Shown here in pieces: positions 11,733 through 36,755 of a stretch of 64,000 bases of DNA. Source of the stretch: an uncultured Candidatus Peribacteria bacterium (GTDB taxonomy: Bacteria > Patescibacteriota > Gracilibacteria > UBA1369 > 2-02-FULL-48-14); NCBI GenBank assembly GCA_964387375.1, contig CAYLWB010000002.1, forward strand, positions 27,173-91,172. The letters are read 5' to 3'. Below the pieces are notes generated by a model. The model was not told the origin of the DNA, ran no database searches, and saw nothing but the letters and a program-made list of their open reading frames with translations. A program made the translations under genes and the position numbers. Each line of letters starts with the position of its first letter. Within the stretch, counting starts at the first letter, position 1.

Positions 11733-11807
11733 TGGGGCGTCGCCAAGTGGTAAGGCACCGGGTTTTGGTCCCGGCATTCGTGGGTTCGAATCCTACCGCC
11801 CCAGCCA
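11733..11807 (+). tRNA. tRNA-Gln (anticodon TTG) with encoded CCA
   Basis: Acceptor TGGGGCG/CGCCCCA; 3-bp D stem GCC/GGC; anticodon stem CCGGG/CCCGG with loop TTTTGGT; T arm GTGGG-TTCGAAT-CCTAC; discriminator G followed by CCA. Confidence 0.9.
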
Positions 11808-11921
11808 ATACGTGCATGATTTGGACCTATGACCCGAGTACCTAGGGCGATGGATACTCGAATTTTCATAGTGGTCTCCATAAAAGTGCTTCTGTTAAAA
11901 GCAAAAGAATCTGCCAAGGGT

Positions 11922-13301: not shown

Positions 13302-13327
13302 AATGGATCGTGATAGCTAGTAGATAA

Positions 13328-16104: not shown

Positions 16105-16109
16105 ACGTT

Positions 16110-18485: not shown

Positions 18486-18608
18486 CTGTTATGCAGCACA
18501 GCTTATCAGAAAAGACTGCTTTTGGGAAAACTAACGCTCGAAAACTCCCTCAACACCAACTTTCGGTCTTTTCTATTCAAGAGCAGTCCATTTTGATATG
18601 ATCCCACC

Positions 18609-19469
18609 ATGTTTTTCGCAATGCCAGCTCAAACAATACGTATTTTCCTCCCTGAAGGCCATCCCCTGGGGTTAAGAATTGCAGATATTTCTGGGAAGCT
18701 CATTCAAGCTTTTGTTTTCTCAAGAAAGACTCTCAAGACGATGGCTAACCGTGCTGAACTCAGCAATACAGGCGTATATTTTCTATTTGGCCAAGAGCCA
18801 GATCAAGAGCTGCCAAGTGTCTACATTGGTGAAGCTGAAAACATTTATGCAAGGCTTATTCAGCACAACAAAGACGATACTAAAGATTTCTGGACGGAAA
18901 CTGTGTGCTTTGTGACGAAGGACAACTCACTCACAAAGGCTCATGTGAAATTTTTGGAGTACAATGCCTACAGAATCGCAAGAGATATTAAACGCTGCCA
19001 TGTGGCGAATAGCTCTATCCCTGCCTCCATAAAGCTTCCAGAAATGGATGAAGCAGATGCAGATAATTTCCTGATTGAGATGAAAATTATTCTCTCTTCG
19101 CTTGGGTGGAATATTCTTTTGCCTCCACAGCAAAGCGAACAATCTGAAGATGTGACGTACTCGTACTCAAAGGGTTCCGTTCATGCAAAAGGGAAATATC
19201 TTTCAGAGGGCTTTCTAATTTACAAAGGTTCTTGTGTTGAATCTAAAACACAAAAAAGTGCTGGCCCTTGGGTTCAAGCCCTAAGAGATGAGCTTCTTAA
19301 ATCTGGTGTTCTCAAAGAGGGCCCAAACCAGACCTACGAGCTGATGCAGGACTATCTATTTAAAAGTCCATCTGCAGCAGGAGCGATCGTACGGGGAGGA
19401 AATATTAACGGTTGGACTTTCTGGAAGGATAGTTCCGGAAAAACTTTAGACGAAAATGAACGTCAATGA
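18609..19469 (+). CDS. GIY-YIG nuclease-like protein with DUF4357-type C-terminal domain
   Basis: GVYFLFG ... VYIGEAENIYARLIQH matches the GIY-(x)n-YIG plus Arg pattern. The C-terminal segment SPSAAGAIVRGGNINGWTFWK resembles DUF4357. Confidence 0.65.
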   Translation: MFFAMPAQTIRIFLPEGHPLGLRIADISGKLIQAFVFSRKTLKTMANRAELSNTGVYFLFGQEPDQELPSVYIGEAENIYARLIQHNKDDTKDFWTETVCFVTKDNSLTKAHVKFLEYNAYRIARDIKRCHVANSSIPASIKLPEMDEADADNFLIEMKIILSSLGWNILLPPQQSEQSEDVTYSYSKGSVHAKGKYLSEGFLIYKGSCVESKTQKSAGPWVQALRDELLKSGVLKEGPNQTYELMQDYLFKSPSAAGAIVRGGNINGWTFWKDSSGKTLDENERQ

Positions 19470-20962
19470 CCATGAAAATCACCGCATCTCACCTCTACAA
19501 CTACGATGCCTGCCCCCACAGGGTTTGGCGGGATGCTCATGACAACCCGAACCTGAGAGATGATCCGAATGAATTCGTTCAGCTCCTCTGGGAGCAAGGG
19601 ACTCAGTACGAAAAAGAAGTCCTTGAAAACATGGAGGGCGACCAGTCTGTTTTAGACCTATCTATCCTTCCCAAGGAAGAGCGTGCACAGGCCACTTTGG
19701 ATGCTATGAATCGTAAAGAGCCGCTTATTTACCACGGACGCTTGGAAGTAGGTGAATTGCTTGGAGAACCCGACCTGCTGGAACTCCAGCCCAATGGGGA
19801 ATATATGCCTGTAGATATTAAATCAGGGATGGGTCTGGAGGGAGGAGACGATTTCACCGAAGGAAAGCCTAAACGGCACTATGCACTGCAACTGGCACTT
19901 TATGTAGATGCACTCAGGCAGCTTGGTTTTGCCACTCACTACCATGGAAAAATCTTCGACAGCACAGGTAAGATGGTTTTGTACGAACTCGACAAACCAA
20001 AAAGTAAAACGGCTAAGGTGACTTGGTGGGAAGAGTATGAAGAAGTCCTTATGGTCACGAGGAATATCTTGCTCAAAAAGATTCAAACAAAACCTGCACT
20101 TGGAGCAACATGCAAAATGTGCGTTTGGTATAGCAACTGCAAAAAAATCTGCATTGATGGAGACTATCTTTCCCTCATCCCTGAGCTTGGTCGTGCCAAG
20201 CAAGAGGCATTTGAAGGACTGGTTTCCACAGTTCATGAACTCGCAGCTTTGGATCCTGAAGATCACATTGATGCGAAAGGCAAAGTAAACTTGCCTGGCA
20301 TCGGTGAATCCACTCTTCGCAAACTCCATCAACGAGCTGAGCTGCTTTCCAGCGGATCCAAAGACATGCTGGTGACGACCCCCTACACACTCCCTCAGCG
20401 AAACATTGAACTCTATTTCGATATAGAGACCGATCCCACTCAAAACATAGTCTACCTCCACGGAGTTGTAGAGCGGAGAAACGGCGACAATGCAAATACC
20501 AAATTTCACTCCTTCCTAGCAAAGGGCGTGAGCAATGCTGAGGAGCGTGAAGCCTTTCAAAAGTTCTGGGATTATATCCGCTCTCTGGGTGGCGACTTTG
20601 CCGTCTACTACTACAGTAAATATGAACGGACCCAGTTCCGAAACTTAATGAAAAAGTTCCCGGGCATCGTTGATGAAGATGAGCTTGAGTACTTCTTTGA
20701 TAATGATGCATCCATAGACCTCTATGAGTTGGTCAAAAAGCACACCGAATGGCCTACCTACAACTACTCCGTAAAAACTTTGGCCCAACATTTAGGCTTT
20801 AATTGGCGAGATGCCAATCCCTCTGGGGCCGCCTCCATTCAATGGTTCAATGAATGGTGCAAAGACCAATCACACGAAAAAATGCAGCGGATTCTTGATT
20901 ACAATGAGGACGACTGTGTTGCCATGATGGTACTCAAAGACGAGCTGGCTAAGCACTGCTAG
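19466..20962 (+). CDS. RecB/Cas4-like PD-(D/E)xK nuclease fused to a DEDD (RNase H-fold) exonuclease; TM0106-like
   Basis: EPDLL...PVDIKSG nuclease motif; Cys cluster CKMCVWYSNCKKIC; exonuclease motifs YFDIETDP and YNEDDCVAM. ATGA overlap with the upstream gene. Confidence 0.65.
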   Translation: MTMKITASHLYNYDACPHRVWRDAHDNPNLRDDPNEFVQLLWEQGTQYEKEVLENMEGDQSVLDLSILPKEERAQATLDAMNRKEPLIYHGRLEVGELLGEPDLLELQPNGEYMPVDIKSGMGLEGGDDFTEGKPKRHYALQLALYVDALRQLGFATHYHGKIFDSTGKMVLYELDKPKSKTAKVTWWEEYEEVLMVTRNILLKKIQTKPALGATCKMCVWYSNCKKICIDGDYLSLIPELGRAKQEAFEGLVSTVHELAALDPEDHIDAKGKVNLPGIGESTLRKLHQRAELLSSGSKDMLVTTPYTLPQRNIELYFDIETDPTQNIVYLHGVVERRNGDNANTKFHSFLAKGVSNAEEREAFQKFWDYIRSLGGDFAVYYYSKYERTQFRNLMKKFPGIVDEDELEYFFDNDASIDLYELVKKHTEWPTYNYSVKTLAQHLGFNWRDANPSGAASIQWFNEWCKDQSHEKMQRILDYNEDDCVAMMVLKDELAKHC

Positions 20963-21015
20963 TCATTCAGAAATGCTCTCAGTCCCTCAATGAGCCTGTC
21001 GCAATTTAAAGCGAC

Positions 21016-22077
21016 CTAATCCACCTTTGGATATAAATCTGCAAAATCACTCGGGTTTATTCGATCTATGAAGCTCACACCTGCGGCCTTTAATGCTTGG
21101 TAGAATTTTAGACGCTGATCATCGTCATTGAGATAATTGAAGTATAGGGCCACACTCCCATCTGAGGAAGCCGTTAGGAATACTCGAGGACATTTATTGA
21201 AGTATTTTGGTTTGATAGAGCCTGCCTTCACACCCGTTCCGAAGGAAACTTCATCCGCCGTTTCTTGCAGGAAGTTTTTGAGCTTAATGAAGCAATCAAA
21301 TTGTTCCTTGCTCAGTCTGCTCTTGGCATCCGCAATCACGCTCTCCATTGTCCAAGATCTCTTGGGAGTATTACTGGTTTTCACTGCTATGTCTTTCTTC
21401 ACTTCAGCCCCGAAAATCTTCGGGATCATGATCTCAAAAGTATCGTGTTTGTAGTACTCAAGCTCCACCGCATAGACATCAAATTGGCTGTTCTGATTCA
21501 GGAATACGATGAGATCCTTGAGGCGATCGTGCAGTTTGTCCATCAACACAACGAATTTGAAATTCCCTTCATTCAGGTTGCTTTTCACGCTCTCCCAAAA
21601 GAAGCCCAGATCGTCTTGTTCAAATCCAAAGAACTCTTTGAGCTTCTCATCCACTGGCATGTGGAAAAACTTCTGGCTAGCTCGATCAATTGCAGATGTG
21701 AACTCTGGGAAATCACTCCCTCGTTTCCAGAGTGAAGCTCCGTAGTCCAAAACCTGAGCAACCACGGTTCTTTTATCTGCATTTTTGTACAACTTGGTTT
21801 CCACAAGATAGATGTTTCCTTCCGCATCAACTCCCAGAGCGTCGATGGGGCCGCTATCCGTCTGATACTCTCTCACTAAGATAAGAAGCTTGATGTCCTC
21901 CTTGATATCATAAAGCGGAATGGAACCTGGATTTTCGTAAATATACTGTTGCAGGTGATCCTCCTTGTCGAAATTGGACTGCTCAAGTTTCTGAGCATTT
22001 CTCCCTGATTGAGATACGATGATCGTCATATTTTTGGGTTTATAAACAAAAGGGACAACCTGACTTGGCAGTCCCAC
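21016..22077 (-). CDS. hypothetical protein with N-terminal PD-(D/E)xK (NucS/DUF91-like) motif
   Basis: IDALGVDAEGNIYLVETKLYKN gives the D...E-x-K signature; the rest is unrecognised. Confidence 0.5.
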   Translation of the reverse strand: MGLPSQVVPFVYKPKNMTIIVSQSGRNAQKLEQSNFDKEDHLQQYIYENPGSIPLYDIKEDIKLLILVREYQTDSGPIDALGVDAEGNIYLVETKLYKNADKRTVVAQVLDYGASLWKRGSDFPEFTSAIDRASQKFFHMPVDEKLKEFFGFEQDDLGFFWESVKSNLNEGNFKFVVLMDKLHDRLKDLIVFLNQNSQFDVYAVELEYYKHDTFEIMIPKIFGAEVKKDIAVKTSNTPKRSWTMESVIADAKSRLSKEQFDCFIKLKNFLQETADEVSFGTGVKAGSIKPKYFNKCPRVFLTASSDGSVALYFNYLNDDDQRLKFYQALKAAGVSFIDRINPSDFADLYPKVD

Positions 22078-22266
22078 ATTCTTGGCTCACACAGAGTCAA
22101 TTCAGCAGGCAAGTAGGTTGCCCCAGCTTGCACTGAATTGACGTATAAATACGTGTGAGAATGAAATGTAGGACTGCATGCGTATCCTACAACACTCGGC
22201 CTCTGTTGTGAATGGATTTGCATATGTATTAGGTTAAATCCCAACACACAGATGCCAGAGCGGAGC

Positions 22267-23784
22267 TTAATGTCTAGTCTTAAATCGAATTATGTTCCCA
22301 CCTGTACTCTCTTTGGTGAATCCCCCATAAAACTGATGCATTGTGTTTATAAGCATGGAAATTGCGTCTGGTAAGTCATCGTGCTTCAGCCCCTCATGGA
22401 AGTTCAGCAACTGCCGTATTGGGTAATCGTAGTCTTTTGGAAAAAAGACATGACCTCTCTCCATTGGAAATGTGGCTGCCTGCAAGCGACCTACTTTATC
22501 TGTTGAGTGATTTTTTACCCTACACACATGGATATCACCATTTTCAGACAATTCCGTTTCAATATTGCTAGCCAATAGTTCCTGCGCCCCATTGGATTCC
22601 ACGATGATTTTGATGGTCAATTTTCCCTTCTGACCGTACTTATAGATGAACCATTTTAGTTTTTGGATTAAATCTGGCATCGAAAGCCTCCTTTCTAAAT
22701 ATTTCGGTAAAAAATGGACTTCATATCTTCCCCTAATAAGATAAACATAGGCCGCTACTACGGCCGTAAAGTCTGCACTTTCTTTCAGGGAGAAGGCGGG
22801 GTCTATGGCAATCACCATTTCTTCCAAACGGCACTCAGGTCCACTTGGCAACTCTTCTTCTCGCTTTATCCATTTTGGATGGACGATCATCTCGTATTCA
22901 GAGCTGGGCATCAGCAAGTACTCTCTATTAAACATGAGCGTTCCCCCAACTTTCATTCGCAATTGTTCCATTTTATTATCTGGAAATTTCTCAGGCCAGC
23001 GAGATTTTCCATTTTCATCCAGCAGAGGGATTTTGAGGAAGAGGCCTTCACCCCCCTTATCTACCAAACTCTCCTTTAGCCTTAGAAGGTAGGACTCTTC
23101 ATGGATTATGTTTCCGATAAAAAAGAAACGTGTTCGTAAATTGTGTCCCGCTGGCATCAGATCCGCTAGTATTTTTCGATACATTTTGTCACGTATATCT
23201 TGGGATCGTACCGAATCCACATCTTCAAGATCATCACAAATGATGAGTTCGGGACGGTTATGTCCGAACTTTATCCCACGATACCCCTGATTCTGAGATA
23301 CGATGGTTATTCTTGCGCCGTAGTAAGGAAGATCAACGTCGGTACTGGACCATGTCTGACCTTCGCCATTTTTTTCAATTTTAAACGGCCCAAGATCTTG
23401 TTTTAACAGCTCATTCTTCCCTAATTCGATCTGTATGTTTTCCAAATAACGCTCTGCTTGGTCTTTCGTCTTTGCAACAATGAGAACGAACTTGAGTTTT
23501 TGAACGCCCATGATGGACCATAGAGGGAGGCAGGTTGTAAAAACTGTTGTTTTAGCGGACTCACGAAAGGCACTTACAATCACGTACTTGAACTTGGTTT
23601 CTTCGCAAGCGTCAAAGTAGCTTTGGTGGAAAGGTGCGAAATTGTACTCCATATGTTCGTGGAAGTAGACGGACATATAGGCCTTGATGGAGTGGCGAGT
23701 AAGTTCTCGGCGGACTTTTGCACTTTTCAGTGCTTCAAAGAGGGGTTCATTCATTGGGTGGTGGGGTAAAGGAATTTTTGGCAT
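22267..23784 (-). CDS. phage terminase large subunit-like protein
   Basis: ATPase region (VSAFRESAKTT, LIICDDLED) and a C-terminal RNase H-like nuclease region (IAIDPAFS, VESNGAQ, KHDDLPDAI). An alternative ATG lies at 23754. Confidence 0.7.
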   Translation of the reverse strand: MPKIPLPHHPMNEPLFEALKSAKVRRELTRHSIKAYMSVYFHEHMEYNFAPFHQSYFDACEETKFKYVIVSAFRESAKTTVFTTCLPLWSIMGVQKLKFVLIVAKTKDQAERYLENIQIELGKNELLKQDLGPFKIEKNGEGQTWSSTDVDLPYYGARITIVSQNQGYRGIKFGHNRPELIICDDLEDVDSVRSQDIRDKMYRKILADLMPAGHNLRTRFFFIGNIIHEESYLLRLKESLVDKGGEGLFLKIPLLDENGKSRWPEKFPDNKMEQLRMKVGGTLMFNREYLLMPSSEYEMIVHPKWIKREEELPSGPECRLEEMVIAIDPAFSLKESADFTAVVAAYVYLIRGRYEVHFLPKYLERRLSMPDLIQKLKWFIYKYGQKGKLTIKIIVESNGAQELLASNIETELSENGDIHVCRVKNHSTDKVGRLQAATFPMERGHVFFPKDYDYPIRQLLNFHEGLKHDDLPDAISMLINTMHQFYGGFTKESTGGNIIRFKTRH

Positions 23785-24169
23785 TCAAAAGCTTGAGAGC
23801 ATTTTGTAAAATTTCTGTTTCTTTGTTATTGAGTATGTCACTTCTCTTCTGAAGAAGTTGTTTTTGTGCTAGTTTGGAGTTGTAATCAATGTGATGATTT
23901 TTTAGCCAGTAAATTATCCCAGTCATATTTCCCGACTGGATGGCTTTTATTAGTTGTGCTTCAGCGACGTCATTCACCTCATCTTTACCGCCTTGCAGGG
24001 CAGTTTCAGCGGCTTCTCTGAACTCTTGATCATGGTCGATCCACCTGTAATAGGTGGCTCTACTGACGCCCATTTTTTCACAAGCCGCACGGACGATCGG
24101 CATTTTCTTCAACTGGTTTATCAGTTGTTCTTTGCGAATATCCTGCTTGGTTTCTGTTGTCATGGTCAT
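23747..24169 (-). CDS. HTH protein, terminase small subunit-like
   Basis: N-terminal HTH (ACEKMGVSRATYYRWID), placed immediately upstream of the TerL-like gene. Confidence 0.5.
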   Translation of the reverse strand: MTMTTETKQDIRKEQLINQLKKMPIVRAACEKMGVSRATYYRWIDHDQEFREAAETALQGGKDEVNDVAEAQLIKAIQSGNMTGIIYWLKNHHIDYNSKLAQKQLLQKRSDILNNKETEILQNALKLLNAKNSFTPPPNE

Positions 24170-24939
24170 GGCGTTAAGAAGATAGGCTCAATCCCTGTCA
24201 TTTTTTTGAACCGATCGACGATGACTTGGCAGTACTTCGGTTCAAGCTCCATAGCAAAGCATCGGCGTTTGGCCTGCTCTGCAGCAATCAAGGTGCTACC
24301 CGAGCCCGCAAATGGGTCAAAGACGGTGCCGCCAATTTTTGAGGAATTTAAAATCAAGTGACGCATGAGCGGCATAGGTTTCATAGTTGGGTGGAGTTTG
24401 TTATTCTTCGTCTTTGGATAAATTAGAATGTTCTTATCCTTGGACTTGTAAAACTTGTGAGTCCCATGCCACCCGTAAGCGATAAGCTCTGTCTGTGGTA
24501 GGTAGTCGAGCCTTCCTATGTTTGCTGATGTTTTTAGCCAAATGAGAAGCTGCTTGAACAAAAACTGCTCAGCCTTCAGCCCGTCTAGGAGAGCGTGAAT
24601 CATGCGGTCGCAGTTGAAGATATAAAAAGCATTTTTCTCTGCAAGATACGGCTTACAGGCCCTTAGCCAATCCTGTGTGAACTTCGTGTATTCTGCGTGA
24701 GATTGAAGTTGGTCATTGGCAATGGGAATGTGACGGCTAGACAGTTCATCTTTGCTTTGGACTACGGCCACTCCATACGGCACATCTGTGGCGATTAGAT
24801 CTATTTTCTGGCCTTGCATGAGCTTTTGAACATCTGCTTCACTTGTGGCATCGCCACAAAGTAAAGAATGTTCACCGAGTTGTATTAAGCTCCCTCGCTC
24901 AATTGAGTTTGAGGGCCTTTGAATTGGTGAATTTTTCAT
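24166..24939 (-). CDS. DNA methyltransferase (N4-C/N6-A, beta-class order)
   Basis: Catalytic DVPYGV followed by AdoMet motif FDPFAGSGSTLIAAE. Confidence 0.85.
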   Translation of the reverse strand: MKNSPIQRPSNSIERGSLIQLGEHSLLCGDATSEADVQKLMQGQKIDLIATDVPYGVAVVQSKDELSSRHIPIANDQLQSHAEYTKFTQDWLRACKPYLAEKNAFYIFNCDRMIHALLDGLKAEQFLFKQLLIWLKTSANIGRLDYLPQTELIAYGWHGTHKFYKSKDKNILIYPKTKNNKLHPTMKPMPLMRHLILNSSKIGGTVFDPFAGSGSTLIAAEQAKRRCFAMELEPKYCQVIVDRFKKMTGIEPIFLTP

Positions 24940-26170
24940 AGCGTGTGATGATAAGTGAGGCGAATAAAGGATCTAGTTCAACGAGAAGGCACCGACGGTT
25001 CATTTGCTGGCATGCTGCCATGATTGAGCCACTACCTCCGAAGAGTTCCAGGACGTAATCGCCTGGTTTGGTGCAGCGTCTGAGCATGCGTTCGTAGATA
25101 GTGGGACTTTTCTCCGTTGGATGTGAATATTTGGCTGAAGGGAGCCGTTTTTCTAACCAAATGTCTAACAAATCTAGGATGTCGTCGTGTGCACGGTTGC
25201 CTGTGCCGACCTCTTTGTTCATGATTTCTGCAAAGGAAGTGTGATAGCTGGAAAGAAATGGTTTACCTCGTGTGCCGTAGCAACAAGGCTCATAGCATCG
25301 GTTGAATGCGATTTGAGGAGTGACCATTGCGGAATTTTTCAGCCATAGGCATACCCGTTGCTGTTTGATTCCGCACTCCGCATACAAACTTTGGATCAGT
25401 CCAATGTAGTTCTGATCCGAGAATGTGAAGTAATGGCAGTCTGGTTGAGAAACGGCTACAGTGTTTTCTAAAATCTTGCTGAGGAAGCTTCGGTAATCCT
25501 CATCTGATTTGTTGTCATCGACGACAGTCCCGCCGTATTTTCCTTTTGTACCTATCCCCTTGTTATAGTCCACTTTTAGGTTATAAGGTGGATCGAGTGT
25601 GACGAAGTGAACTTTTTTGTCGCCAACAAGTTTTTGCACGACTTTTGGATCAGTGCTGTCCCCACAGGCCAGCAGATGCTGGCCTAACTGATAGTAGTCG
25701 CCTTCCTTTACGAAAACTTCTTTGATCTCCTTCAGTTCTTCTTCTAGATCGAAATCGTCATCTTCTGTTTCGGATACGTCGTCCCAGAGATGCTGAAGCT
25801 CCTCAGAAGAGAATCCAACATCTGTGAGAAGGTCTAGATCGAACTCACGGAGAAGGTCAAAATCCCATTCTCCTGTATTTTTGTTCAATCTTATATTCAA
25901 TTCACGCTCTCGGTCTTCATCAGGAATGTTCACATAGAGTACTGGTATTTGATCAAAGCCTAAATCAGCCGCTGCTTTCATTCTCTGGTGTCCTCCAATT
26001 ACGATGTTTTTCCGATTGGGAGCGTTGTTGACGATAATTGGCCCCAACAAACCGAAGCGTTTTATACTTTCCTTGATCTGTTCAAATGCTTCTGGGGTTA
26101 TTTTTCTAGGATTGTAGGGAGAAGGGTTAAGATTTTTAATTGGAACGAGAACTGATTTTGGATTGTCCAT
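24899..26170 (-). CDS. ParB-like nuclease domain fused to DNA methyltransferase
   Basis: ParB/Srx motif VIGGHQRMKAA, then LDPPYN and ELFGGSGSIMAA. ATG at 26170 (MDNPKSV...) is preferred over the longer ORF. Confidence 0.85.
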   Translation of the reverse strand: MDNPKSVLVPIKNLNPSPYNPRKITPEAFEQIKESIKRFGLLGPIIVNNAPNRKNIVIGGHQRMKAAADLGFDQIPVLYVNIPDEDRERELNIRLNKNTGEWDFDLLREFDLDLLTDVGFSSEELQHLWDDVSETEDDDFDLEEELKEIKEVFVKEGDYYQLGQHLLACGDSTDPKVVQKLVGDKKVHFVTLDPPYNLKVDYNKGIGTKGKYGGTVVDDNKSDEDYRSFLSKILENTVAVSQPDCHYFTFSDQNYIGLIQSLYAECGIKQQRVCLWLKNSAMVTPQIAFNRCYEPCCYGTRGKPFLSSYHTSFAEIMNKEVGTGNRAHDDILDLLDIWLEKRLPSAKYSHPTEKSPTIYERMLRRCTKPGDYVLELFGGSGSIMAACQQMNRRCLLVELDPLFASLIITRYEKFTNSKALKLN

Positions 26171-26261
26171 TTGAGTGGGGTTAAAAAATCGTCCCCATTT
26201 TGCTATGAACAAAAAAACGGGAGAATCTCCCGTTTTCAAACACACTTCTCCCGTTTTTGAA

Positions 26262-26819
26262 TTATGTCCTCACTGTATTATCTACAAGATAACCCCTGTT
26301 TCGTATTCTCTTTGCAAACACCCCATTCAGGCCGATTTGACTATCTTCTAAATTCAAAAATCTTTTAGCCGCTCTGATCCCTAAACGGATTCTATCTTTC
26401 ATTTTTTCTCCTTCACGTGGTGGCAGACCCTGATCCCGAAGAAGATTCTCTATCTGTCGCTCCGTACAAATTCCAAACTCATCCTGTGTTTCAATCAATG
26501 CTCGTATCACTAAAACGTGAACGGAATTCATTTTTGGATAAATTTTCTTGCCACAAACAACTACACAATCAGGCTTAAAAACAATGGCTAGCTCTCTAGG
26601 TTTTGAGCGCATGATTTGGACTGTTTCCAGTTCTAAATCAAATGTGTCACCCTTGATCCATCCGTGTATTACTCTTACTGGTTCCAATAGCGCTTCTTCG
26701 AACTCCTTTAGGATGTCGGCCACGTCGTTCAGTCTTTCGATAAAATCGCTCATGCTATTCGCTCCAGCGTAATCCATTTGCATCCCCGAGGCTGTGACCA
26801 TATTGTTGAAGCTTTGCAT
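26262..26819 (-). CDS. hypothetical protein
   Basis: 185-aa ORF in the same operon, no recognised motif. Confidence 0.5.
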   Translation of the reverse strand: MQSFNNMVTASGMQMDYAGANSMSDFIERLNDVADILKEFEEALLEPVRVIHGWIKGDTFDLELETVQIMRSKPRELAIVFKPDCVVVCGKKIYPKMNSVHVLVIRALIETQDEFGICTERQIENLLRDQGLPPREGEKMKDRIRLGIRAAKRFLNLEDSQIGLNGVFAKRIRNRGYLVDNTVRT

Positions 26820-26845
26820 GTCTACATTTTATTAACTGCTAGATC

Positions 26846-27127
26846 TTAACGGGTTGGGCATTGATCTAAAGAAAGAAGATTGTTGTTATAATATCCATCC
26901 GCATAAGTCCGCAAATAAGGATTCTGTCCAAGCTGACGCACAACTCCAACATCGGATCGACGACGATTGGTCGGATCTAAAACATAAAACGTATCCGTAT
27001 TATTTTCGATGTTTTGAATGACCTTTTCCCTTGTCGCAAACCAGCCATACCCACCCAGATGGGTGATGTGCTCATGAGTGCTGTCGAGATTGGGCTTAAT
27101 GATACATGTTACCTCTAGATCTGCCAT
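26846..27127 (-). CDS. DUF3892-like small protein
   Basis: VTCIIKPNLDSTHEHITHLGG... resembles the DUF3892 core (recalled from memory, not searched). Confidence 0.55.
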   Translation of the reverse strand: MADLEVTCIIKPNLDSTHEHITHLGGYGWFATREKVIQNIENNTDTFYVLDPTNRRRSDVGVVRQLGQNPYLRTYADGYYNNNLLSLDQCPTR

Positions 27128-27138
27128 GATAGTTTTGG

Positions 27139-27315
27139 TTAAGGTTTATTGACTTTAGTGACGCCTTTGAATGGCCCGGGTGACCTCTTACCGTCCATAA
27201 ATTTTCCGTCATCTCCCATTTTGGTCCAAACGTCCGTCTTGGGGTTATAAACTTGCTTGCGGTCACGGACAGCCCCATGTCGTCTACCGTCACCTTTCGG
27301 AGGGTTAGCTGCCAT
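27139..27315 (-). CDS. small basic hypothetical protein, first gene of the leftward operon
   Basis: ATG at 27315 (MAANPPKGDGRRHG...) sits downstream of a good sigma70-like promoter. Confidence 0.4.
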   Translation of the reverse strand: MAANPPKGDGRRHGAVRDRKQVYNPKTDVWTKMGDDGKFMDGKRSPGPFKGVTKVNKP

Positions 27316-27340
27316 ATCTGTAAAATTAAGAAACGAGCGA

Positions 27341-27369
27341 ACTATAGCGAATAAAAAGAGAATATGCAA
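27341..27369 (-). promoter_or_regulatory. candidate sigma70-type promoter for the leftward (terminase/methylase) operon
   Basis: Minus strand reads TTGCAT, 17 nt, TATAGT. TTCGCT direct repeats spaced 10 bp apart (plus-strand AGCGAA at 27336-27341 and 27346-27351) flank the -10. Confidence 0.35.
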
Positions 27370-27423
27370 GAACTTATTACGAAAACAGGTGGACTCTGTA
27401 CTACTTAAAGTGATATCATGTAA

Positions 27424-28044
27424 ATGAAGTTAATCTACGCCATGCTCGAAAGTCTCACTGCAAGCCAACAAAAGGTATTTCGTTATTACGAGACATTCTT
27501 TCAAGAAAACCATCGGCCTCCCACTTATGAAGAAGCGGGAAGGGATTTGGATGTGTCTCCAAGCGTTGTATACAATCACATCAAAAACCTAGAAAAAAAG
27601 GGCTACCTGAAATCATCTTCTAAATCAGAAGGGCGTGGTGTTGAGCTTTTTGGTCATACCCAAGGTATCCCAATCCTTGGGAAAATTGCCTGTGGAGAAC
27701 CCATTCAAGTATTTGAAGAAGCGGCTGAGCCAATTAACGTTCCAAAAGCTATGCTCAAAGGGCCTGGCCCATTTTATGGACTTTATGCAGAAGGCTTCAG
27801 CATGATCAATGCTGGTATCAGCCATAAAGATATCCTCATCATTCGGAAGCAAAACGATGTGGATGATGGAGATATTGGAGTAGTCATTTTAGGTGATGAT
27901 CCTACGGAGGAACGAGCCACATTGAAGCGGGTCTACAAGAGGCCACAATCCGTCATTTTGAAACCAGAGAACGATGATTTCGAGTCCATTGCAGTGGAGA
28001 ACTGCCAAATTCGTGGGAAACTGATCGGTCGTATCACGTATTAA
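27424..28044 (+). CDS. lexA: LexA-like S24 peptidase repressor
   Basis: N-terminal wHTH (PPTYEEAGRDLDVSPSVVYNHIKNLEKKGYL), cleavage region ...IACGEP..., catalytic Ser in GFSM and Lys in TLKRV. Confidence 0.85.
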   Translation: MKLIYAMLESLTASQQKVFRYYETFFQENHRPPTYEEAGRDLDVSPSVVYNHIKNLEKKGYLKSSSKSEGRGVELFGHTQGIPILGKIACGEPIQVFEEAAEPINVPKAMLKGPGPFYGLYAEGFSMINAGISHKDILIIRKQNDVDDGDIGVVILGDDPTEERATLKRVYKRPQSVILKPENDDFESIAVENCQIRGKLIGRITY

Positions 28045-28064
28045 GAAAAGACTCATTAATTTAC

Positions 28065-28559
28065 ATGATGAAAACTGATATCGGAGAGTACATCGTCGGA
28101 GCTTACCTCAAGCTAATTGAAAAATGTGATGTGATTGACTACAATGTCAGACCTACTGGCGGTGGAGTCAAAGGGCTGGGTGAGCTGGATGTCATTGGAA
28201 TGAATTTCAAAACGAACACTGTTTTTATTTGTGAAGTCACGACTCATTTGAATGGCCTACTTTATGCCAATGGAAACATAGGAACTGTCAAAAAAATTCA
28301 GGATAAACACCAGAGGCAAAAAGAGTACGCTGAAGAATTTCTGTCTCATTTCAAAAATAAACGGTTCATGTTCTGGTCCCCACGAATTCCCAAAGGGACA
28401 ATCACAAATGGAATCACTCAACTCACTGATTTAGAGCTGATAATCAATGATGAATATACAAAAAAAGTGGATGCGCTGAAAGCCTTGGCACGAACGACGA
28501 CGGCTGACTGTGGAAATGTCTTTTTCCGCACATTGCAGATTTTAGAACACCTCAGGTAA
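28065..28559 (+). CDS. hypothetical protein, possible YraN/PD-(D/E)xK-like fold
   Basis: GELDVIGMNFKTNTVFICEVTTH resembles the D...E-x-K core, but the Lys is replaced by Thr. Confidence 0.45.
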   Translation: MMKTDIGEYIVGAYLKLIEKCDVIDYNVRPTGGGVKGLGELDVIGMNFKTNTVFICEVTTHLNGLLYANGNIGTVKKIQDKHQRQKEYAEEFLSHFKNKRFMFWSPRIPKGTITNGITQLTDLELIINDEYTKKVDALKALARTTTADCGNVFFRTLQILEHLR

Positions 28560-28597
28560 AGACCCGCCTTCCGAGCTTGCCATAAAATGTGGAGTAA

Positions 28598-29644
28598 TCA
28601 TTCCATGTTATTTAACTTGAAATTCACTTCATATGTTTGCAATGAAACATTTGGAAGTGTTTTAAGCGCATAACGGATACGGTCGTCGTGGGAACCTAGA
28701 ATGATGAGTCCTTTTACCGTTTCACCTTCGCTCGCTAAATGTTCGGATACGAAGCCGATATACCTTAAGACCTGACCCACAACTTCATCGCTAGATCTGC
28801 CCCTCTTAAGCTCAATCACCAGCCATTCTTTTCCATCCTTACTTTTAGCGAGGATATCGATGCGGCCAACGATTTCAGTATCATATTGCTGGCCGATTAA
28901 GTCGCCGTCTTTCTCAAGAATTGCGTAAGTTTTGCCCAATGAAGTTTTCTCCCAGTTGTACACAAGGAAGTCTTCCAGGAATTTTTCTAGTCCAAACTCA
29001 GCTATATCTGTTACACCCTCTTTTTGGAGTATTGCTTCCACTTCTGCCGAATCTTCATCTTCCTCTCGGCCAATAGGTTTATCAGAAAATGAAAGCCAAC
29101 CGAGGATATCGTCGGTCTGCCAAAGTGTTAGACCATGTTCCTTTGAAAAGGCTTTAAGTGCTTCGTTCACAAGAACATATCTCTCTGCGAAACTTTTTCC
29201 TTTCAAATTCGGCAACAACCCTGCAGCTTCCAAGCCTGCCTCGCTTTTTGTATTGAACACGCCATACCTTTCTGGATAAACGACCAATAGAATGGGTGTT
29301 ACTATCGCTCTACCCAAACCCTTAATCATTGAAGGTCCTTTTGGCGAGAATAAATCGTTTAAACGTTCCTTAAGAGACCGTGTTTCGTCCAAGAGTATCT
29401 TCAAAGCTCCAATGAGCCTCGGCATGTTTTCTGTTATCATGTTGCTCTGACGATGGATTCCATCCCAATGCCGATTATTCTTGATTACAAGGAATGATTT
29501 GAAATCTTCCTTTGTGAGTCGGTCAAGGTTTGATGGATGAAAGATCTGGCCGTACTTACCGATCACCTCTTCCTCTTCCTGTAATCGCTTGGGATTGGTG
29601 AGTACGAGCTGTTTCCACTCGTCGACTTGTTTTTTATCGATCAT
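28598..29644 (-). CDS. protein with C-terminal PD-(D/E)xK nuclease domain (NucS/DUF1016-like)
   Basis: VGRIDILAKSKDGKEWLVIELKRGRSSDEVVGQVLRY gives D...E-x-K followed by the QxxxY helix. The roughly 230-aa N-terminal region is unrecognised. Confidence 0.6.
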   Translation of the reverse strand: MIDKKQVDEWKQLVLTNPKRLQEEEEVIGKYGQIFHPSNLDRLTKEDFKSFLVIKNNRHWDGIHRQSNMITENMPRLIGALKILLDETRSLKERLNDLFSPKGPSMIKGLGRAIVTPILLVVYPERYGVFNTKSEAGLEAAGLLPNLKGKSFAERYVLVNEALKAFSKEHGLTLWQTDDILGWLSFSDKPIGREEDEDSAEVEAILQKEGVTDIAEFGLEKFLEDFLVYNWEKTSLGKTYAILEKDGDLIGQQYDTEIVGRIDILAKSKDGKEWLVIELKRGRSSDEVVGQVLRYIGFVSEHLASEGETVKGLIILGSHDDRIRYALKTLPNVSLQTYEVNFKLNNME

Positions 29645-30249
29645 GCTTTTTTCGTGTTTATGGAATTAAATTTAAACATATTTGTACTCCTGAGTGCTTT
29701 ACATTCTTTGCCGATTTCATCCAGCAGTTCATTCCAAACTTCTCCAAGGCGGTTTGCAGCAGCTATAACACCATTCATTGTTTCTACATTAAGAGAAGAT
29801 AAAGCGGCAGATTTCTTTTCCTTTCCTTCTGAAATCTTCCTGGTTAGGGCATGACCATGTACCAACATATTTCTAATTTTCCCTATATGTCGAACCTGAC
29901 TTAGGATTTCTTTTCGGGCTTCTATCGCCTTTTCACCAGAGATGAAAAAGGAAATAAAAAATCCAATCTTTTCTTTAATGTGCATATCTTTTTCAGTTTT
30001 TTCCCATATTTGGAACAAATCGGGCCGTCTGAATTCAAATTCTAGTTGCATCACCCTTCTCATGTTTTGATGCAAAAAACACTCGATGTAAACTTGCAGA
30101 AATATAAAGGCAAAAATTAGCTCCTCATCTTTTTTGCCTTCCTCAAACTTAGCCCTGAATGCCTCGAATTCGTTCCTATAAATAATGGCGTCCTTTTCAA
30201 CCATCAAACTAATCTCCTCTGAGATTGAAATAGTTTCTTCTATATTCAC
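29641..30249 (-). CDS. HEPN-like protein (Rx4H motif)
   Basis: All-helical sequence containing GKIRNMLVHGH (R-N-x3-H, the HEPN Rx4-6H signature). ATGA overlap with the downstream nuclease gene. Confidence 0.5.
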   Translation of the reverse strand: MNIEETISISEEISLMVEKDAIIYRNEFEAFRAKFEEGKKDEELIFAFIFLQVYIECFLHQNMRRVMQLEFEFRRPDLFQIWEKTEKDMHIKEKIGFFISFFISGEKAIEARKEILSQVRHIGKIRNMLVHGHALTRKISEGKEKKSAALSSLNVETMNGVIAAANRLGEVWNELLDEIGKECKALRSTNMFKFNSINTKKA

Positions 30250-30253
30250 AATT

Positions 30254-30283
30254 TTGGAAGGTTAAACTGCTCTATGCTAAAAT
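30254..30283 (+). promoter_or_regulatory. candidate sigma70-type promoter
   Basis: TTGGAA, 18 nt, TAAAAT, ending about 27 nt upstream of the small ORF at 30311. Confidence 0.3.
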
Positions 30284-30310
30284 ATATCATGTTTTTTCAT
30301 ATTTTCGTGT

Positions 30311-30445
30311 ATGGCTAAACGCACTAAAAAACAGCAGAGAGGCAAGATCCGCTTTACCGTTACTTTTTGCGAAGACGAAGAAGAAAACGAGCGTGCTTTT
30401 GAAAATGCTGTCAGTGCTGTTTTAGGTCTAAATTCACTTCACTAA
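30311..30445 (+). CDS. small ORF (44 aa), hypothetical
   Basis: Hand-translated as MAKRTKKQQRGKIRFTVTFCEDEEENERAFENAVSAVLGLNSLH*. It is below the ORF-track cutoff and ends 11 nt before the next gene. Confidence 0.3.
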   Translation: MAKRTKKQQRGKIRFTVTFCEDEEENERAFENAVSAVLGLNSLH

Positions 30446-30456
30446 CCTTAACTTAT

Positions 30457-31044
30457 ATGAACTTGCCTGATGAAGCCGTACGTGAATTACAAGAAATTTA
30501 TAAAAAGGAGTATGGAAAAGAAATTTCACATGCGGAAGCATACGAATCGGCCAGTAATCTAATCGGTCTTTTTGAGGTTTTACTCAAAGGTGAACGAGAA
30601 GACCGTGCAAGGAAACTTAGGCTGAAAGATGAGCCTAAAGGCTTTCACATCAAGGGCGGCCCTTATAACTGTTTTATTTGCGGAAAGTACGTGAGCGACG
30701 AAGAAACTTGGTACGATAAATATGGAATCAAGTGCTTGATATGCCAGCGTGCTGTAGAAAAGCGGATAGTGCCTGGGAAAATCTGTCAGGACAAAGACTC
30801 GTGGTATTCAATGTGGGAGCTGGACCACTACTTTAAGATCAAGTATCAAGCTGCACGGAAGCTCATCCGACAAGGCAAGTTGAAAGCCAGGGTCATCACA
30901 TCTCAAGGTGACGATGCCTACTGTTTTGTTTTTCTCATCAAGGAAAATCCGATCCTAGGCTCAAAGCCGAAGTCCACTTTGGTCAAACATGAGGATGGCC
31001 GTTTTAGTACTCGTCAGGAGGAAAGGACTATTCAGTTTGATTAA
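30457..31044 (+). CDS. hypothetical Zn-ribbon protein
   Basis: CFICGKYVSDEETWYDKYGIKCLICQ forms a CxxC...CxxC pattern. Confidence 0.55.
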   Translation: MNLPDEAVRELQEIYKKEYGKEISHAEAYESASNLIGLFEVLLKGEREDRARKLRLKDEPKGFHIKGGPYNCFICGKYVSDEETWYDKYGIKCLICQRAVEKRIVPGKICQDKDSWYSMWELDHYFKIKYQAARKLIRQGKLKARVITSQGDDAYCFVFLIKENPILGSKPKSTLVKHEDGRFSTRQEERTIQFD

Positions 31045-32272: not shown

Positions 32273-32506
32273 GTGAGTAAAAGTTTTGTTATGAAGATTA
32301 CCGTGGTAGCTAGACCCAACGCAAAGTTCGAAAAAGTTGAAAAGATAGAAACAGGATATAAGGTCTGGACAAAGAAAGCTCCTGTGGAGGGCAAAGCCAA
32401 CGCAGCGATCATTAAACTGCTGGCCGCGTATTTGAAAATTCCACGGTCAGGCATTCATTTGATTTCCGGGGCAAAGGGAAAGAAAAAACTGTTCGAGATC
32501 ACTTGA
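32273..32506 (+). CDS. DUF167 (YggU-like) protein
   Basis: KITVVARPNAKFEKV...APVEGKANAAIIKLLAAYLKIPRSGIHLISGAKGKKKLFEI matches the DUF167 pattern. GTG at 32273, ATG at 32291. Confidence 0.65.
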   Translation: MSKSFVMKITVVARPNAKFEKVEKIETGYKVWTKKAPVEGKANAAIIKLLAAYLKIPRSGIHLISGAKGKKKLFEIT

Positions 32507-34625: not shown

Positions 34626-34635
34626 CTTATTTTGA

Positions 34636-34857
34636 TTAAATAATTTCTCCTCTCTTCTCAAGCATCATGTGGTGAATAGTGGCAATTTGGGTCCAAATTG
34701 CGATGAGAATAAGAATTGCAGTGCAAGCTAAAGCGTCTGCTTTTGTAATTCCGAATACAAGATTGTCTGCTCCACCGAGGATGGAAGCGACGAAGGTAAG
34801 CACCCCGGTGAGTCCTACTAAGACACTGATGATGTGCATTGATTTAGATAGTTTCAT
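34636..34857 (-). CDS. small membrane protein
   Basis: 73 aa with two hydrophobic helices, inside the copper operon. Confidence 0.5.
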   Translation of the reverse strand: MKLSKSMHIISVLVGLTGVLTFVASILGGADNLVFGITKADALACTAILILIAIWTQIATIHHMMLEKRGEII

Positions 34858-34874
34858 ATTTTTAGGTTAAATGA

Positions 34875-35069
34875 TTAATTAGCTGCCGTACTGAGGTATT
34901 TTTCTGGATCAGTGACGAATTGATCCTTGCAACCCGTGCTACAAAAATAGTAGATGCATCCTTTGTGAGCGACTTGGAGAGTTTCCTCTGTAGGATTGAG
35001 TTCCATGCCACAGACTACATCCTTAACTGGAGATGAATTTTTATTACCGCAACATGATGAGTTTTCCAT
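34875..35069 (-). CDS. YHS/TRASH-domain metal-binding protein
   Basis: VCGMELNP...YYFCSTGCKDQFVTDPEKY. Confidence 0.75.
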   Translation of the reverse strand: MENSSCCGNKNSSPVKDVVCGMELNPTEETLQVAHKGCIYYFCSTGCKDQFVTDPEKYLSTAAN

Positions 35070-35185
35070 AAATTTAATTGTTATTGATGAGACAAATAAG
35101 CTCTACTAAACTACTGGTTTGCCGGTGTACAACTTTCGCTTTGAATTCTTGATTAAACATGAGGAGGTGGTAAAAGAGTCAAAAC

Positions 35186-36742: not shown

Positions 36743-36755
36743 TGTATTAATTGGA

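Follow-up and report, generated by a model that had tools for sequence, protein, structure and literature searches.

Genes and features of the locus

The window analyzed here is a 64,000-nucleotide stretch of contig CAYLWB010000002.1, and positions refer to its first letter. A terminase and double methyltransferase operon on the minus strand (22267-27315) is the conserved core of a mobile island of about 19 kb (about 11808-31044), probably from a Peregrinibacteria-like CPR bacterium. The features are as follows.

11733-11807, plus strand: tRNA-Gln(ttg), the insertion target and right boundary; the island begins immediately after its 3' end
11922-13301, minus strand: large serine recombinase, the integrase of the island
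13328-18485, minus strand: type I restriction-modification (R-M) cargo, with hsdS at 13328-14677, hsdM at 14674-16104 and hsdR at 16110-18485
18609-19469, plus strand: DUF4357 / weak GIY-YIG protein, cargo within the variable stretch
19466-20962, plus strand: TM0106-family RecB-like nuclease (PD-(D/E)XK + RNase_H_2)
21016-22030, minus strand: PD-(D/E)XK / NucS_C-like protein, a candidate defence gene (PDC-S11)
22031-22266, minus strand: highly conserved, strongly structured intergenic element downstream of TerL (an ncRNA, a leader or a DNA site)
22267-23754, minus strand: TerL, a terminase large subunit homologue with intact ATPase and RNase H-like nuclease motifs
23747-24169, minus strand: TerS-like HTH protein
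24166-24939, minus strand: second N6/N4 DNA methyltransferase
24899-26170, minus strand: ParB_N::N6/N4 DNA methyltransferase fusion (ParB-MTase)
26213-26237, minus strand: terminator-like hairpin between the early genes and the MTase-terminase genes
26262-26819, minus strand: 185-aa lineage-specific protein, possibly an OmpR/PhoB-type winged-helix regulator, in the variable slot upstream of the MTase
26846-27127, minus strand: DUF3892 protein
27139-27315, minus strand: 58-aa basic protein
27341-27369, minus strand: promoter-like hexamers TTGCAT-17-TATAGT (unproven)
27424-28044, plus strand: LexA-type repressor (LexA_DNA_bind + Peptidase_S24), divergent from the operon
28065-28559, plus strand: 164-aa conserved unknown protein next to the repressor
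28598-29644, minus strand: NucS_C/YhcG PD-(D/E)XK nuclease, a candidate defence gene (PDC-S02)
29641-30249, minus strand: 202-aa unknown protein
30457-31044, plus strand: 195-aa protein (Zn-ribbon plus weak HTH_17), the last gene shared with the closest relative and hence the left boundary

The preliminary description, which reported a leftward operon of seven genes with no capsid, portal, tail or lysis genes, was confirmed: all seven genes are present on the minus strand and in the order it gave. Profile searches identified DUF3892 (Pfam, E=8e-13; also PHROG 8224), the ParB_N and N6_N4_Mtase domains of the fusion (E=2e-12 and 2e-23; PHROG 498, E=1.5e-99), the second N6_N4_Mtase (E=1.5e-30) and TerL (PHROG 38, E=3e-75). 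The 140-aa HTH protein gave only weak TerS hits (PHROG 4044, E=1e-8, with other PHROG TerS families down to 4e-4; Pfam Sf6_terminase, E=2e-3). Its AF2 model is all-helical, and the best Foldseek hits, which are not significant, are phBC6A51 and Sf6 TerS. Distant relatives of this protein sit just upstream of a putative large terminase in phage contigs. A profile of the TerL family hits T7 TerL (8dgc) at E=8e-6, and Walker A R74/K78, Walker B D184-D185-E187 and nuclease residues D328, E396, D470 and D473 are all present in the TerL of the window. Searches with Pfam and PHROGs found no structural, replication or lysis family in any ORF of at least 100 aa between 11.9 and 32 kb.

Several coordinates were refined by comparison with relatives, chiefly L001, a 78%-identical copy of the island in another Peregrinibacteria genome, and L002, a further locus. 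The 58-aa gene is at 27139-27315; it has no family hit, but it is conserved in L001 with a dN/dS of 0.06, indicating that it is a real gene. The TerL start is most likely M11 at 23754, which gives 495 aa as in the protein P0001 and its homologues, and ParB-MTase most likely starts at 26170 (424 aa, as in L001 and L002). The open reading frame of the PDC-S11 candidate runs to 22077, but the alignment places the conserved ATG near 22030. Adjacent genes overlap by 41 nt (ParB-MTase and second MTase), 4 nt (second MTase and TerS) and 8 nt (TerS and TerL).

The promoter had been described as good, but this is not established. The hexamers at 27369-27341 score only 8 of 12 against the consensus and fall below the threshold of our scan, which found no more promoter-like sites than shuffled sequence gives (10 against 9.5). 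The -10 hexamer is conserved in L001, while the -35 is not. The hairpin at 26237-26213 is strong and terminator-like, with an 11-bp stem followed by a T-run, and lies between the 185-aa gene and ParB-MTase. The single operon of the preliminary description may therefore be two stages. Only four homologues of the 185-aa protein exist. Its AF2 model is of low confidence, with a beta3-H-H-H-beta-hairpin topology, and the top Foldseek hits, ToxR and BaeR, are not significant. The slot is filled by unrelated families in other loci.

The repressor matches the NCBIfam lexA equivalog with 137 bits against a cutoff of 111, in agreement with Pfam; the Ser (GFSM) and Lys (LKR) are present, and the cleavage site reads A-C-G. 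The adjacent 164-aa protein is conserved in L001 and L002 (81-83% aa identity; dN/dS 0.08 against L001, dS saturated against L002) and has no family hit. The 202-aa protein is known as an ORF only, with no family hit and no ORF match in L001. The 195-aa protein belongs to a cluster (c14) that recurs at the repressor-side end of 9 loci; HTH_17 was found only at E=0.006, in a cluster representative. The intergenic element at 22031-22266 is 92-97% identical to L001, while the flanking coding DNA is about 78% identical. Its minimum free energy is -87 kcal/mol (z=-6.7), with 2 compensatory pairs and several G-U-compatible changes. It had no Rfam hit and was found only in the window, L001 and L002.

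Island boundaries, cargo and selection

The preliminary description missed that the island extends well beyond 22267-27369, that it contains the serine recombinase and a type I R-M system, and that it belongs to a very large CPR-wide family. The tRNA was identified by ARAGORN and Rfam. Homology to L001 starts right after the tRNA 3' end and ends at 31043, whereas L001 abuts tRNA-Ser and has different flanks. In 41 of 41 related loci, the first downstream tRNA is convergent with the core operon and is mostly Ser or Gln. A 9.5-kb copy, L028, is bounded by 32-nt direct repeats at tRNA-Ser. The recombinase (Pfam Resolvase, Recombinase and Zn_ribbon_recom) has the catalytic motif YARKSS and is 86% identical to the L001 copy.

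The hsd genes were assigned by Pfam (Methylase_S, N6_Mtase/HsdM_N and ResIII/EcoEI_R_C). L001 has a type ISP R-M system plus DUF87 in this position, indicating a variable cargo slot. The DUF4357 assignment is from Pfam (E=1e-19), and the TM0106-family nuclease, conserved in L001, from NCBIfam TIGR03491 (E=6e-68) and Pfam. PADLOC matched the two candidate defence genes (PDC-S11, E=2e-17; PDC-S02, E=1e-55); the former recurs in 11 loci as cluster c13/c9. PADLOC has no model matching TerL or TerS.

The genes are under strong purifying selection, with dN/dS values of 0.02-0.11 (0.02-0.07 for the second MTase and 0.08 for DUF3892). L001 carries a frameshift in TerL, but this is a single extra A in an A7 run, in what we take to be a long-read assembly, and is probably a sequencing error.

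A capsid-less family in Patescibacteria

The same gene order occurs in a complete Peregrinibacteria genome and in four other contexts. Relatives are encoded by at least 460 species genomes, nearly all Patescibacteria, and by 434 IMG/VR contigs and 476 metagenome contigs; complete carrier genomes include CP064962.1, OZ246396.1 and OZ246394.1. The layout [repressor] - variable gene - ParB-MTase(-MTase) - TerS - TerL - (0-10 cargo genes) - large serine recombinase recurs in about 200 loci examined, and the family, which has no portal, capsid, tail, lysis or recognisable replication genes, is apparently undescribed. An MTase lies within 1.6 kb upstream of TerL in 144 of 146 loci, and a second MTase is present in 63 of 146. 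A serine recombinase lies downstream of TerL on the same strand in 116 of 157 loci and is directly adjacent in 62. An S24 repressor sits in the position of the LexA-type gene in 33 of 116 loci. The one portal-like hit (locus L156) sits next to a borderline TerL of phage type. Clustering found no other gene family in more than 13 of 167 loci, and no circular or concatemeric contig was found among about 240 loci.

Of 131 element TerLs, 130 form one clade apart from portal-linked phage TerLs, and the catalytic residues, whose loss would have pointed to simple decay, are kept in at least 97% of the 131. The G-N coupling motif of the clade is a tolerated variant (PMC12366544). No portal-linked phage member of the clade was present among the 80 best IMG/VR hits, and the nearest phage-type TerLs are at most 31% identical. 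Some lineages carry two tandem TerLs, both catalytically intact, or a 700-aa TerL, which packaging phages do not. A few relatives (L257, L260, L268 and L270) have lost TerL.

Interpretation and comparison with known systems

The preliminary description proposed a phage satellite, a decayed prophage or a repurposed translocase/nuclease module, and this interpretation is partly supported. The best-supported reading, held with no more than moderate confidence, is a repressor-controlled integrative island that keeps only a phage-derived packaging-initiation module (ParB-MTase, often a second MTase, TerS and TerL), joined to a large serine recombinase and usually placed under an S24/LexA-type or Xre/M78-type repressor, and that is probably satellite-like. 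The architecture and its recurrence, purifying selection, intact catalytic sites, insertion next to tRNA 3' ends, mobility (the same island at two different tRNAs) and swapping of defence cargo are established by our data, while helper dependence and the mechanism that follows are inferred. In this view, the repressor keeps the module silent until it is inactivated by RecA-type self-cleavage or a phage cue, upon which the 58-aa protein, DUF3892 and a variable DNA-binding protein would be expressed first, followed by the MTase-TerS-TerL block. The MTases would modify the DNA, which could serve anti-restriction in the next host or license a packaging site. TerS-TerL would cut at an island-borne packaging site and load the DNA into proheads supplied by a co-resident or co-infecting phage, and the serine recombinase would excise the island and re-integrate it at a tRNA gene. 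The cargo, which includes type I R-M and PD-(D/E)XK nucleases here and CBASS, type ISP R-M, DGR and GmrSD elsewhere, would protect the host.

Some observations weigh against this reading. No replication module or origin was identified, whereas described satellites encode one, and circular or concatemeric forms were absent as noted above. A terminase that must dock on helper portals would be expected to stay close to helper terminases, in contrast to the separation of the element clade, and no phage with a closely matching TerS was found. In addition, SOS-type repressors suggest autonomous induction rather than helper-triggered induction, and the tandem and 700-aa TerLs are not those of packaging phages.

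A capsid-independent exaptation is not excluded, although we consider it doubtful. Here the MTases, TerS and TerL would work together as a modification-dependent nuclease-translocase, in which TerS recognizes DNA, TerL translocates and cuts, and the MTases mark self DNA. The unit would serve as an addiction, exclusion or anti-phage module, or process island DNA for another export route. The clean separation of the TerL clade, the coupling of MTase to TerL with overlapping reading frames, the tandem and 700-aa TerLs, the absence of a replication module and circular forms, and the abundance of other defence genes in the islands are consistent with this. On the other hand, the MTase-MTase-TerS-TerL order is inherited unchanged from true phages, where it serves packaging. 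The block also sits behind a repressor and a terminator, so the MTases are probably not constitutive, as a self-protecting R-M system would require. PADLOC offers no support, and full conservation of the ATPase coupling motif and of both catalytic centres is what a working packaging motor needs.

It is unlikely that the structural genes are encoded elsewhere in the same genome, in a GTA-like split system or an always co-occurring resident helper prophage, with the terminase as one part of a dispersed particle-producing system. TerL and TerS are intact and selected, and split arrangements exist among gene transfer agents, but the island is mobile and sits in different genomic contexts, unlike a domesticated host system, and nothing recurrent lies within 10 kb on either side.

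A decaying prophage remnant is rejected: the gene order matches the early-late junction of temperate phages, and TerL is lost in a few relatives and frameshifted in L001, but the selection, the recurrence of the reduced layout and the conserved catalytic residues contradict it. The possibility that structural genes would be contiguous in a better assembly is excluded, because the island's ends are defined by comparison with a complete 1.34-Mb genome and the recombinase directly abuts TerL in 62 loci. A complete but unrecognizable virus is close to excluded: several island ORFs have no family hit and CPR viruses are poorly known (PMC12366544), but minimal copies consist of MTase-TerS-TerL-recombinase plus one or two small genes (about 5-10 kb in all), the unannotated genes are not conserved between loci, and the recombinase so often abuts TerL.

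PICIs and SaPIs are likewise integrated, repressor-controlled islands without tail or lysis genes that carry their own small terminase to redirect packaging and often anti-phage cargo. However, PICIs have a tyrosine integrase, a primase-replicase with an origin and usually capsid-size or packaging-interference genes, and rely on the helper's TerL, while this island, found in Patescibacteria, has a large serine recombinase, its own TerL, a ParB-MTase core and no detectable replicon. Capsid-forming PICIs (cf-PICIs), the known satellites with a TerL, encode both TerS and TerL but also a portal, a protease, a major capsid protein and head-tail connectors, none of which was found here or, apart from the portal-like hit in L156, in about 200 related loci. 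PLE of Vibrio cholerae is a satellite integrated by a large serine recombinase, with no virion genes, whose excision depends on a helper-encoded directionality factor; it has its own replication initiator, no terminase and no sequence relationship to the island. VEIMEs and PICMIs are small integrative elements, some with serine recombinases and TerS, that are packaged as concatemers without capsid remodelling (PMC9618062). That paper lists replication genes and small-subunit terminases among VEIME genes, treats large-subunit terminases as helper-phage genes and, in the parts consulted, mentions no MTase-TerS-TerL core; no concatemers were seen here. In phage P1, a complete phage, adenine methylation controls pac cleavage, which is a precedent for a functional link between a DNA methyltransferase and terminase cutting, although no methylation-dependent pac site has been identified in the island.

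The packaging modules of temperate Caudoviricetes point to a phage origin of the core. A homologous ParB-MTase (about 31% identity) and a second MTase lie just upstream of TerS-TerL in Streptococcus phage Javan124, and a similar order is seen in Blautia phage NatCom_27009, whose genes downstream of the terminase are unannotated. In the Streptococcus phage, the module is preceded by replication genes and TerL is followed by an annotated portal gene within about 0.7 kb, whereas in the island TerL is followed by cargo and the recombinase.

Gene content of the window

An ORF listing and family scans confirmed, on the minus strand, the seven-gene list of the preliminary description, and its observation of a terminase and double methyltransferase (MTase) operon holds. 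All ORFs of at least 100 aa from 11.9 to 43.8 kb were scanned in addition. The features found, in order along the window, are as follows.

11733-11807, tRNA-Gln
11922-13301, large serine recombinase
13328-18485, type I restriction-modification (R-M) system
next, a DUF4357 protein
next, a TM0106-type RecB-like nuclease
next, a PD-(D/E)XK protein matching the defence candidate PDC-S11
22031-22266, minus strand, conserved intergenic stretch between TerL and the PDC-S11-like gene
22267-23754, minus strand, TerL (T7/N4-like PHROG 38 E=3e-75)
23747-24169, minus strand, 140-aa HTH protein with weak TerS hits (PHROG 4044 E=1e-8)
24166-24939, minus strand, second N6_N4 MTase
24899-26170, minus strand, ParB_N::N6_N4 MTase (PHROG 498 E=1.5e-99)
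26237-26213, terminator-like hairpin
26262-26819, minus strand, 185-aa protein with no family
26846-27127, minus strand, DUF3892 protein (Pfam E=8e-13)
27139-27315 (corrected coordinates), minus strand, 58-aa basic protein
27424-28044, transcribed divergently from the operon, LexA-type repressor
next, a 164-aa unknown protein
next, a nuclease matching the defence candidate PDC-S02 (PADLOC E=1e-55)
next, small unknown proteins
from 32.5 kb onward, ordinary copper-resistance genes

No capsid, portal, tail, lysis or replication family appeared in these scans. The last four genes of the operon (ParB-MTase, second MTase, TerS-like gene and TerL) overlap by 41, 4 and 8 nt. The hexamers TTGCAT-17-TATAGT (27341-27369), which had been described as a good promoter, exist, but they are not distinguishable from chance and the -35 is not conserved in the closest relative. 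The strong hairpin at 26237-26213 separates the three small upstream genes from the MTase-terminase block. The repressor combines a LexA DNA-binding domain with an S24 peptidase; it scores 137 bits against the cutoff of 111 of the NCBIfam lexA equivalog (TIGR00498) and keeps the Ser (in GFSM) and Lys (in LKR) of the S24 dyad, while its cleavage site is A-C-G rather than A-A-G.

The intergenic stretch of roughly 230 nt at 22031-22266 is 92-97% identical to the relatives, while the neighbouring coding DNA is about 78% identical. It is predicted to fold very stably (-87 kcal/mol, z=-6.7) into a long nested hairpin with an alternative terminator, and has 2 compensatory and several G-U-compatible changes. 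The mechanical 73-aa ORF over it has dN/dS 0.7-0.9 with dS of only 0.14, so it is not coding. Rfam gave no match, and an nhmmer search found the element only in the three closest relatives. It could be an ncRNA, an antiterminator leader, or a DNA site such as pac.

Limits and distribution of the island

The closest TerL relatives lie in Patescibacteria. In the complete genome CP064962.1 (Candidatus Peregrinibacteria, 1.34 Mb; locus L001), the gene order is the same, from a 195-aa gene through repressor, operon and nucleases to the recombinase. Nucleotide homology to the window covers three blocks, 30360-31043, 19472-29650 and 11778-13320. The gap between the last two blocks holds the type I R-M system in the window and a type ISP R-M system plus DUF87 in the relative, and is a cargo slot. 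Homology begins right after the 3' end of tRNA-Gln in the window and right after tRNA-Ser in the relative, and the outer flanks are unrelated. The island is therefore a discrete mobile unit of about 19.2 kb (about 11808-31044), with which the LexA-type repressor travels. G+C content drops to 0.39-0.41 over 12000-19000, the recombinase and type I R-M segment, against 0.44-0.48 elsewhere, which is consistent with recently acquired cargo. The patch at 26050-26700, covering the 185-aa gene, the terminator and the start of the ParB-MTase, is 99-100% identical between the window and L001 inside an island that is otherwise about 78% identical, suggesting recent recombination between islands. The apparent split of TerL in L001 is one extra A in an A7 run, which we attribute to sequencing error on the assumption that this genome is a long-read assembly.

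Direct att repeats flanking the window island were sought with exact matches and local alignment, and nothing exceeded shuffled controls; the left end rests only on where homology to L001 stops. A copper/heavy-metal P-type ATPase cluster (window 32499-38642), here including a multicopper oxidase and a beta-propeller protein, lies next to the island in the window and next to, or inside, related islands in about 12 loci (L015, L024, L045, L048, L049, L073, L079 and L084 among them). It may be recurrent cargo or a shared insertion hot-spot, and the left end could therefore extend beyond 31044.

Pattern scans with a TerL alignment found relatives in at least 460 species-representative genomes, at least 434 IMG/VR contigs and at least 476 metagenome contigs, and nearly all named genomes are Patescibacteria. 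Complete carrier genomes include CP064962.1, OZ246396.1 and OZ246394.1. At 50% clustering, 293 representatives match at E<=1e-30. ORFs were called in all fetched loci and clustered, and the loci were then annotated with HMMs built from the clusters. Among 200 element-type loci, an MTase lies within 1.6 kb upstream of TerL in 144 of 146 loci with enough flank, and there are two MTases in 63. A TerS-like gene lies upstream of TerL (within 3.5 kb) in 102 of 146. A large serine recombinase lies downstream on the same strand in 116 of 157, and is directly adjacent in 62 of the 124 loci where one was found. An S24 repressor lies upstream in 33 of 116, and Xre/M78 occurs in others, such as the relative L002. 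No other gene cluster occurs in more than 13 of 167 loci. The single portal-like hit belongs to a borderline, phage-type contig (L156).

Minimal copies, for example loci L063 and L070, are just MTase-TerS-TerL-recombinase. Locus L028 has a copy bounded by 32-nt direct repeats 9.5 kb apart, of which one abuts tRNA-Ser and the other is followed by a tRNA-3'-like fragment. In 41 of 41 loci with a tRNA downstream, that tRNA is convergent with the core, and serine (16) and glutamine (14) tRNAs dominate. In seven loci (L013, L015, L027, L040, L058, L084 and L103), a second, longer serine recombinase (about 500-550 aa) lies on the repressor side, which may mark tandem insertion of another element at the same site. 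Four relatives (L257, L260, L268 and L270) keep MTase-TerS and the recombinase but have lost TerL, and may be decay forms or a TerS-only variant. Cargo in related islands (L003/L025, L005/L006, L001, L047 and L066) includes CBASS (SMODS or CD-NTase with Cap15), type ISP R-M with an SNF2 helicase, diversity-generating retroelements (DGR; RT + bAvd), GmrSD, and small lipoprotein-like proteins (tRNA_anti-like, DUF4352).

No circular or concatemeric contig of the element was found among all fetched loci; the 2-kb internal repeat in locus L118 is a partial duplication or an assembly chimera rather than a concatemer. The correlation in a co-divergence test of TerL, recombinase and MTase was weak and uninformative (rho about 0.1, Mantel p about 0.05), reflecting either a star-like phylogeny or module shuffling. 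Profile-profile comparison of the variable genes upstream of the MTase merged only the gene clusters c15 with c97 and c32 with c62 and c83, the others being unrelated, and Pfam and PHROG searches on those families gave nothing useful.

The terminase genes

The window TerL has an N-terminal ASCE ATPase with Walker A (R74, K78), Walker B (D184, D185, E187) and coupling (G224-N225) motifs, and a C-terminal RNase H-like nuclease with the acidic residues D328, E396, D470 and D473. These residues are kept in at least 97% of 131 relatives. The family profile hits T7 TerL (8dgc), whereas the Pfam Terminase_6C match is weak (E=7e-3). The coupling motif is G-N in the islands and G-T in the phage relatives, and asparagine is one of only two tolerated substitutes at the equivalent T4 position (PMC12366544). 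Against two relatives, dN/dS is 0.02-0.11 for the MTases, TerS, the repressor and the small genes; for TerL, dS is saturated while dN is 0.14-0.25.

In IMG/VR, contigs whose TerL is at least 33% identical to that of the window have the island layout, while those at or below 31% have the classical TerL-portal-capsid order. In a neighbour-joining tree, 130 of 131 island TerLs form one pure clade, with portal-linked TerLs outside it. Apart from the phage-type contig L156, no linkage to portal or capsid genes was found in the island or in about 200 related loci. In eight loci (L010, L011, L020, L077, L087, L088, L090 and L091; mostly Peribacteria/Peregrinibacteria where named), two TerL paralogues lie in tandem, both keeping the Walker and nuclease residues, and the TerS gene is sometimes missing; such an arrangement is not known to us in packaging phages. 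TerL variants of about 700 aa (loci L021, L032, L034, L074 and L078; proteins P0049, P0043 and P0051) have a C-terminal extension of about 230 aa with no Pfam or PHROG hit, which by eye resembles a second nuclease-like domain.

The 140-aa TerS-like protein gave hits to PHROG TerS families at E=1e-8 to 4e-4 and to Pfam Sf6_terminase at E=2e-3, the latter below cutoff. Its AF2 model has a pLDDT of 68, and the best Foldseek hits, phBC6A51 and Sf6 gp1, are not significant (E>0.3). Its gene lies immediately upstream of TerL and overlaps it. In IMG/VR, every close TerS relative is in the same type of island and only distant relatives are in phages, where they precede an unannotated 400-475-aa ORF, presumed to be a large terminase of another family. 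The AF2 model of the 185-aa protein (pLDDT 53) also gave only suggestive, non-significant fold matches.

Homologues of the ParB-MTase (about 31% identity) sit with a second MTase just upstream of TerS-TerL-portal in Streptococcus phage Javan124, and a similar order is seen in a Blautia phage. The island core therefore looks like the early-late junction of a temperate phage, from which everything after TerL (morphogenesis and lysis) and everything before the MTase (replication) has been lost, while the recombinase and the repressor were kept.

Interpretation and comparison with known systems

The analysis establishes a mobile, tRNA-adjacent, repressor-equipped island with a conserved and functional-looking MTase-TerS-TerL core and exchangeable defence cargo; how it works is inferred. 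In the satellite model, derepression would turn on the early genes, which in the window include a possible OmpR/PhoB-type winged-helix protein (on weak evidence), and the MTase-terminase block would follow. The DNA would be methylated, TerS-TerL would initiate ATP-driven packaging of island DNA into proheads supplied by another phage, and the recombinase would handle excision and integration. The packaging activity itself, carriage in helper-phage particles and helper-dependent induction all belong to the inferred part. We hold this explanation as a whole with moderate confidence; we are highly confident of a mobile island family, whereas the use of helper capsids is tentative. The interpretation in the preliminary description, which offered a satellite, a decayed prophage or a repurposed module, is partly supported.

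Some observations do not fit the satellite model. There is no recognizable replicon, no circular or concatemeric assemblies were seen, and no phage with a close TerS or TerL was found in IMG/VR. Known satellites that bring a TerL also bring a portal, and some lineages have the tandem or 700-aa TerLs. These points leave possible, though less likely, a capsid-independent role for an MTase-guided TerS/TerL nuclease-translocase. In this view, a whole clade of terminases has left virion assembly and, with an obligately linked ParB-MTase, would act as the maintenance, exclusion or DNA-processing engine of a new class of serine-recombinase mobile islands widespread in Patescibacteria. Against this, the block is inherited unchanged from phages and sits behind a repressor and a terminator, so the MTases are unlikely to be constitutive. 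In addition, PADLOC gave no hit for TerL or TerS, and the MTases hit generic MTase_II models. A hypothetical split system with structural genes elsewhere is considered improbable, and a decaying remnant and a cryptic complete virus are each very unlikely.

Patescibacteria (CPR) make up a large share of bacterial diversity, yet almost nothing is known about their mobile elements, phages or defence; only one patescibacterial phage and very few defence systems are noted as described (PMC12366544). The family could be a main vehicle for moving R-M, CBASS, DGR and nuclease defence genes between these reduced genomes, and could be the first satellite-type element of the CPR. Its serine recombinases, which target tRNA-adjacent sites, and its MTases are possible tools for a group that is only now becoming genetically tractable. 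It also raises the question of what an intact, strongly selected terminase does in an element with no portal or capsid, when it belongs to a clade in which no phage members were found. As 43 of the top 80 IMG/VR hits to this TerL (L087-L129) are capsid-less islands rather than phages, virus-detection pipelines are probably counting them as CPR viruses in public catalogues.

Full-text searches of an open-access library found no description of a capsid-less TerL + MTase + serine-recombinase element in the CPR, which is absence of evidence only. In the passages considered from a survey of marine satellites (PMC9618062), small terminases and serine recombinases are reported, large-subunit terminases appear only as helper-phage genes, and no TerL-MTase core is mentioned. 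With PICI-like satellites, the island shares an integrase with site-specific insertion and a master repressor divergent from the lytic-type operon. The replication initiator and origin of such satellites have no counterpart here, as no primase, Rep or helicase family was found in the island or in the recurrent clusters, although unknown proteins could hide one. The cf-PICIs encode their own portal, protease and major capsid protein alongside TerS and TerL, and none of these three is present in the island. We regard the element as a phage-satellite-like integrative island that differs from PICI-like satellites in lacking a recognizable replicon and from cf-PICIs in lacking these virion genes, with a real chance that it is something more unusual.
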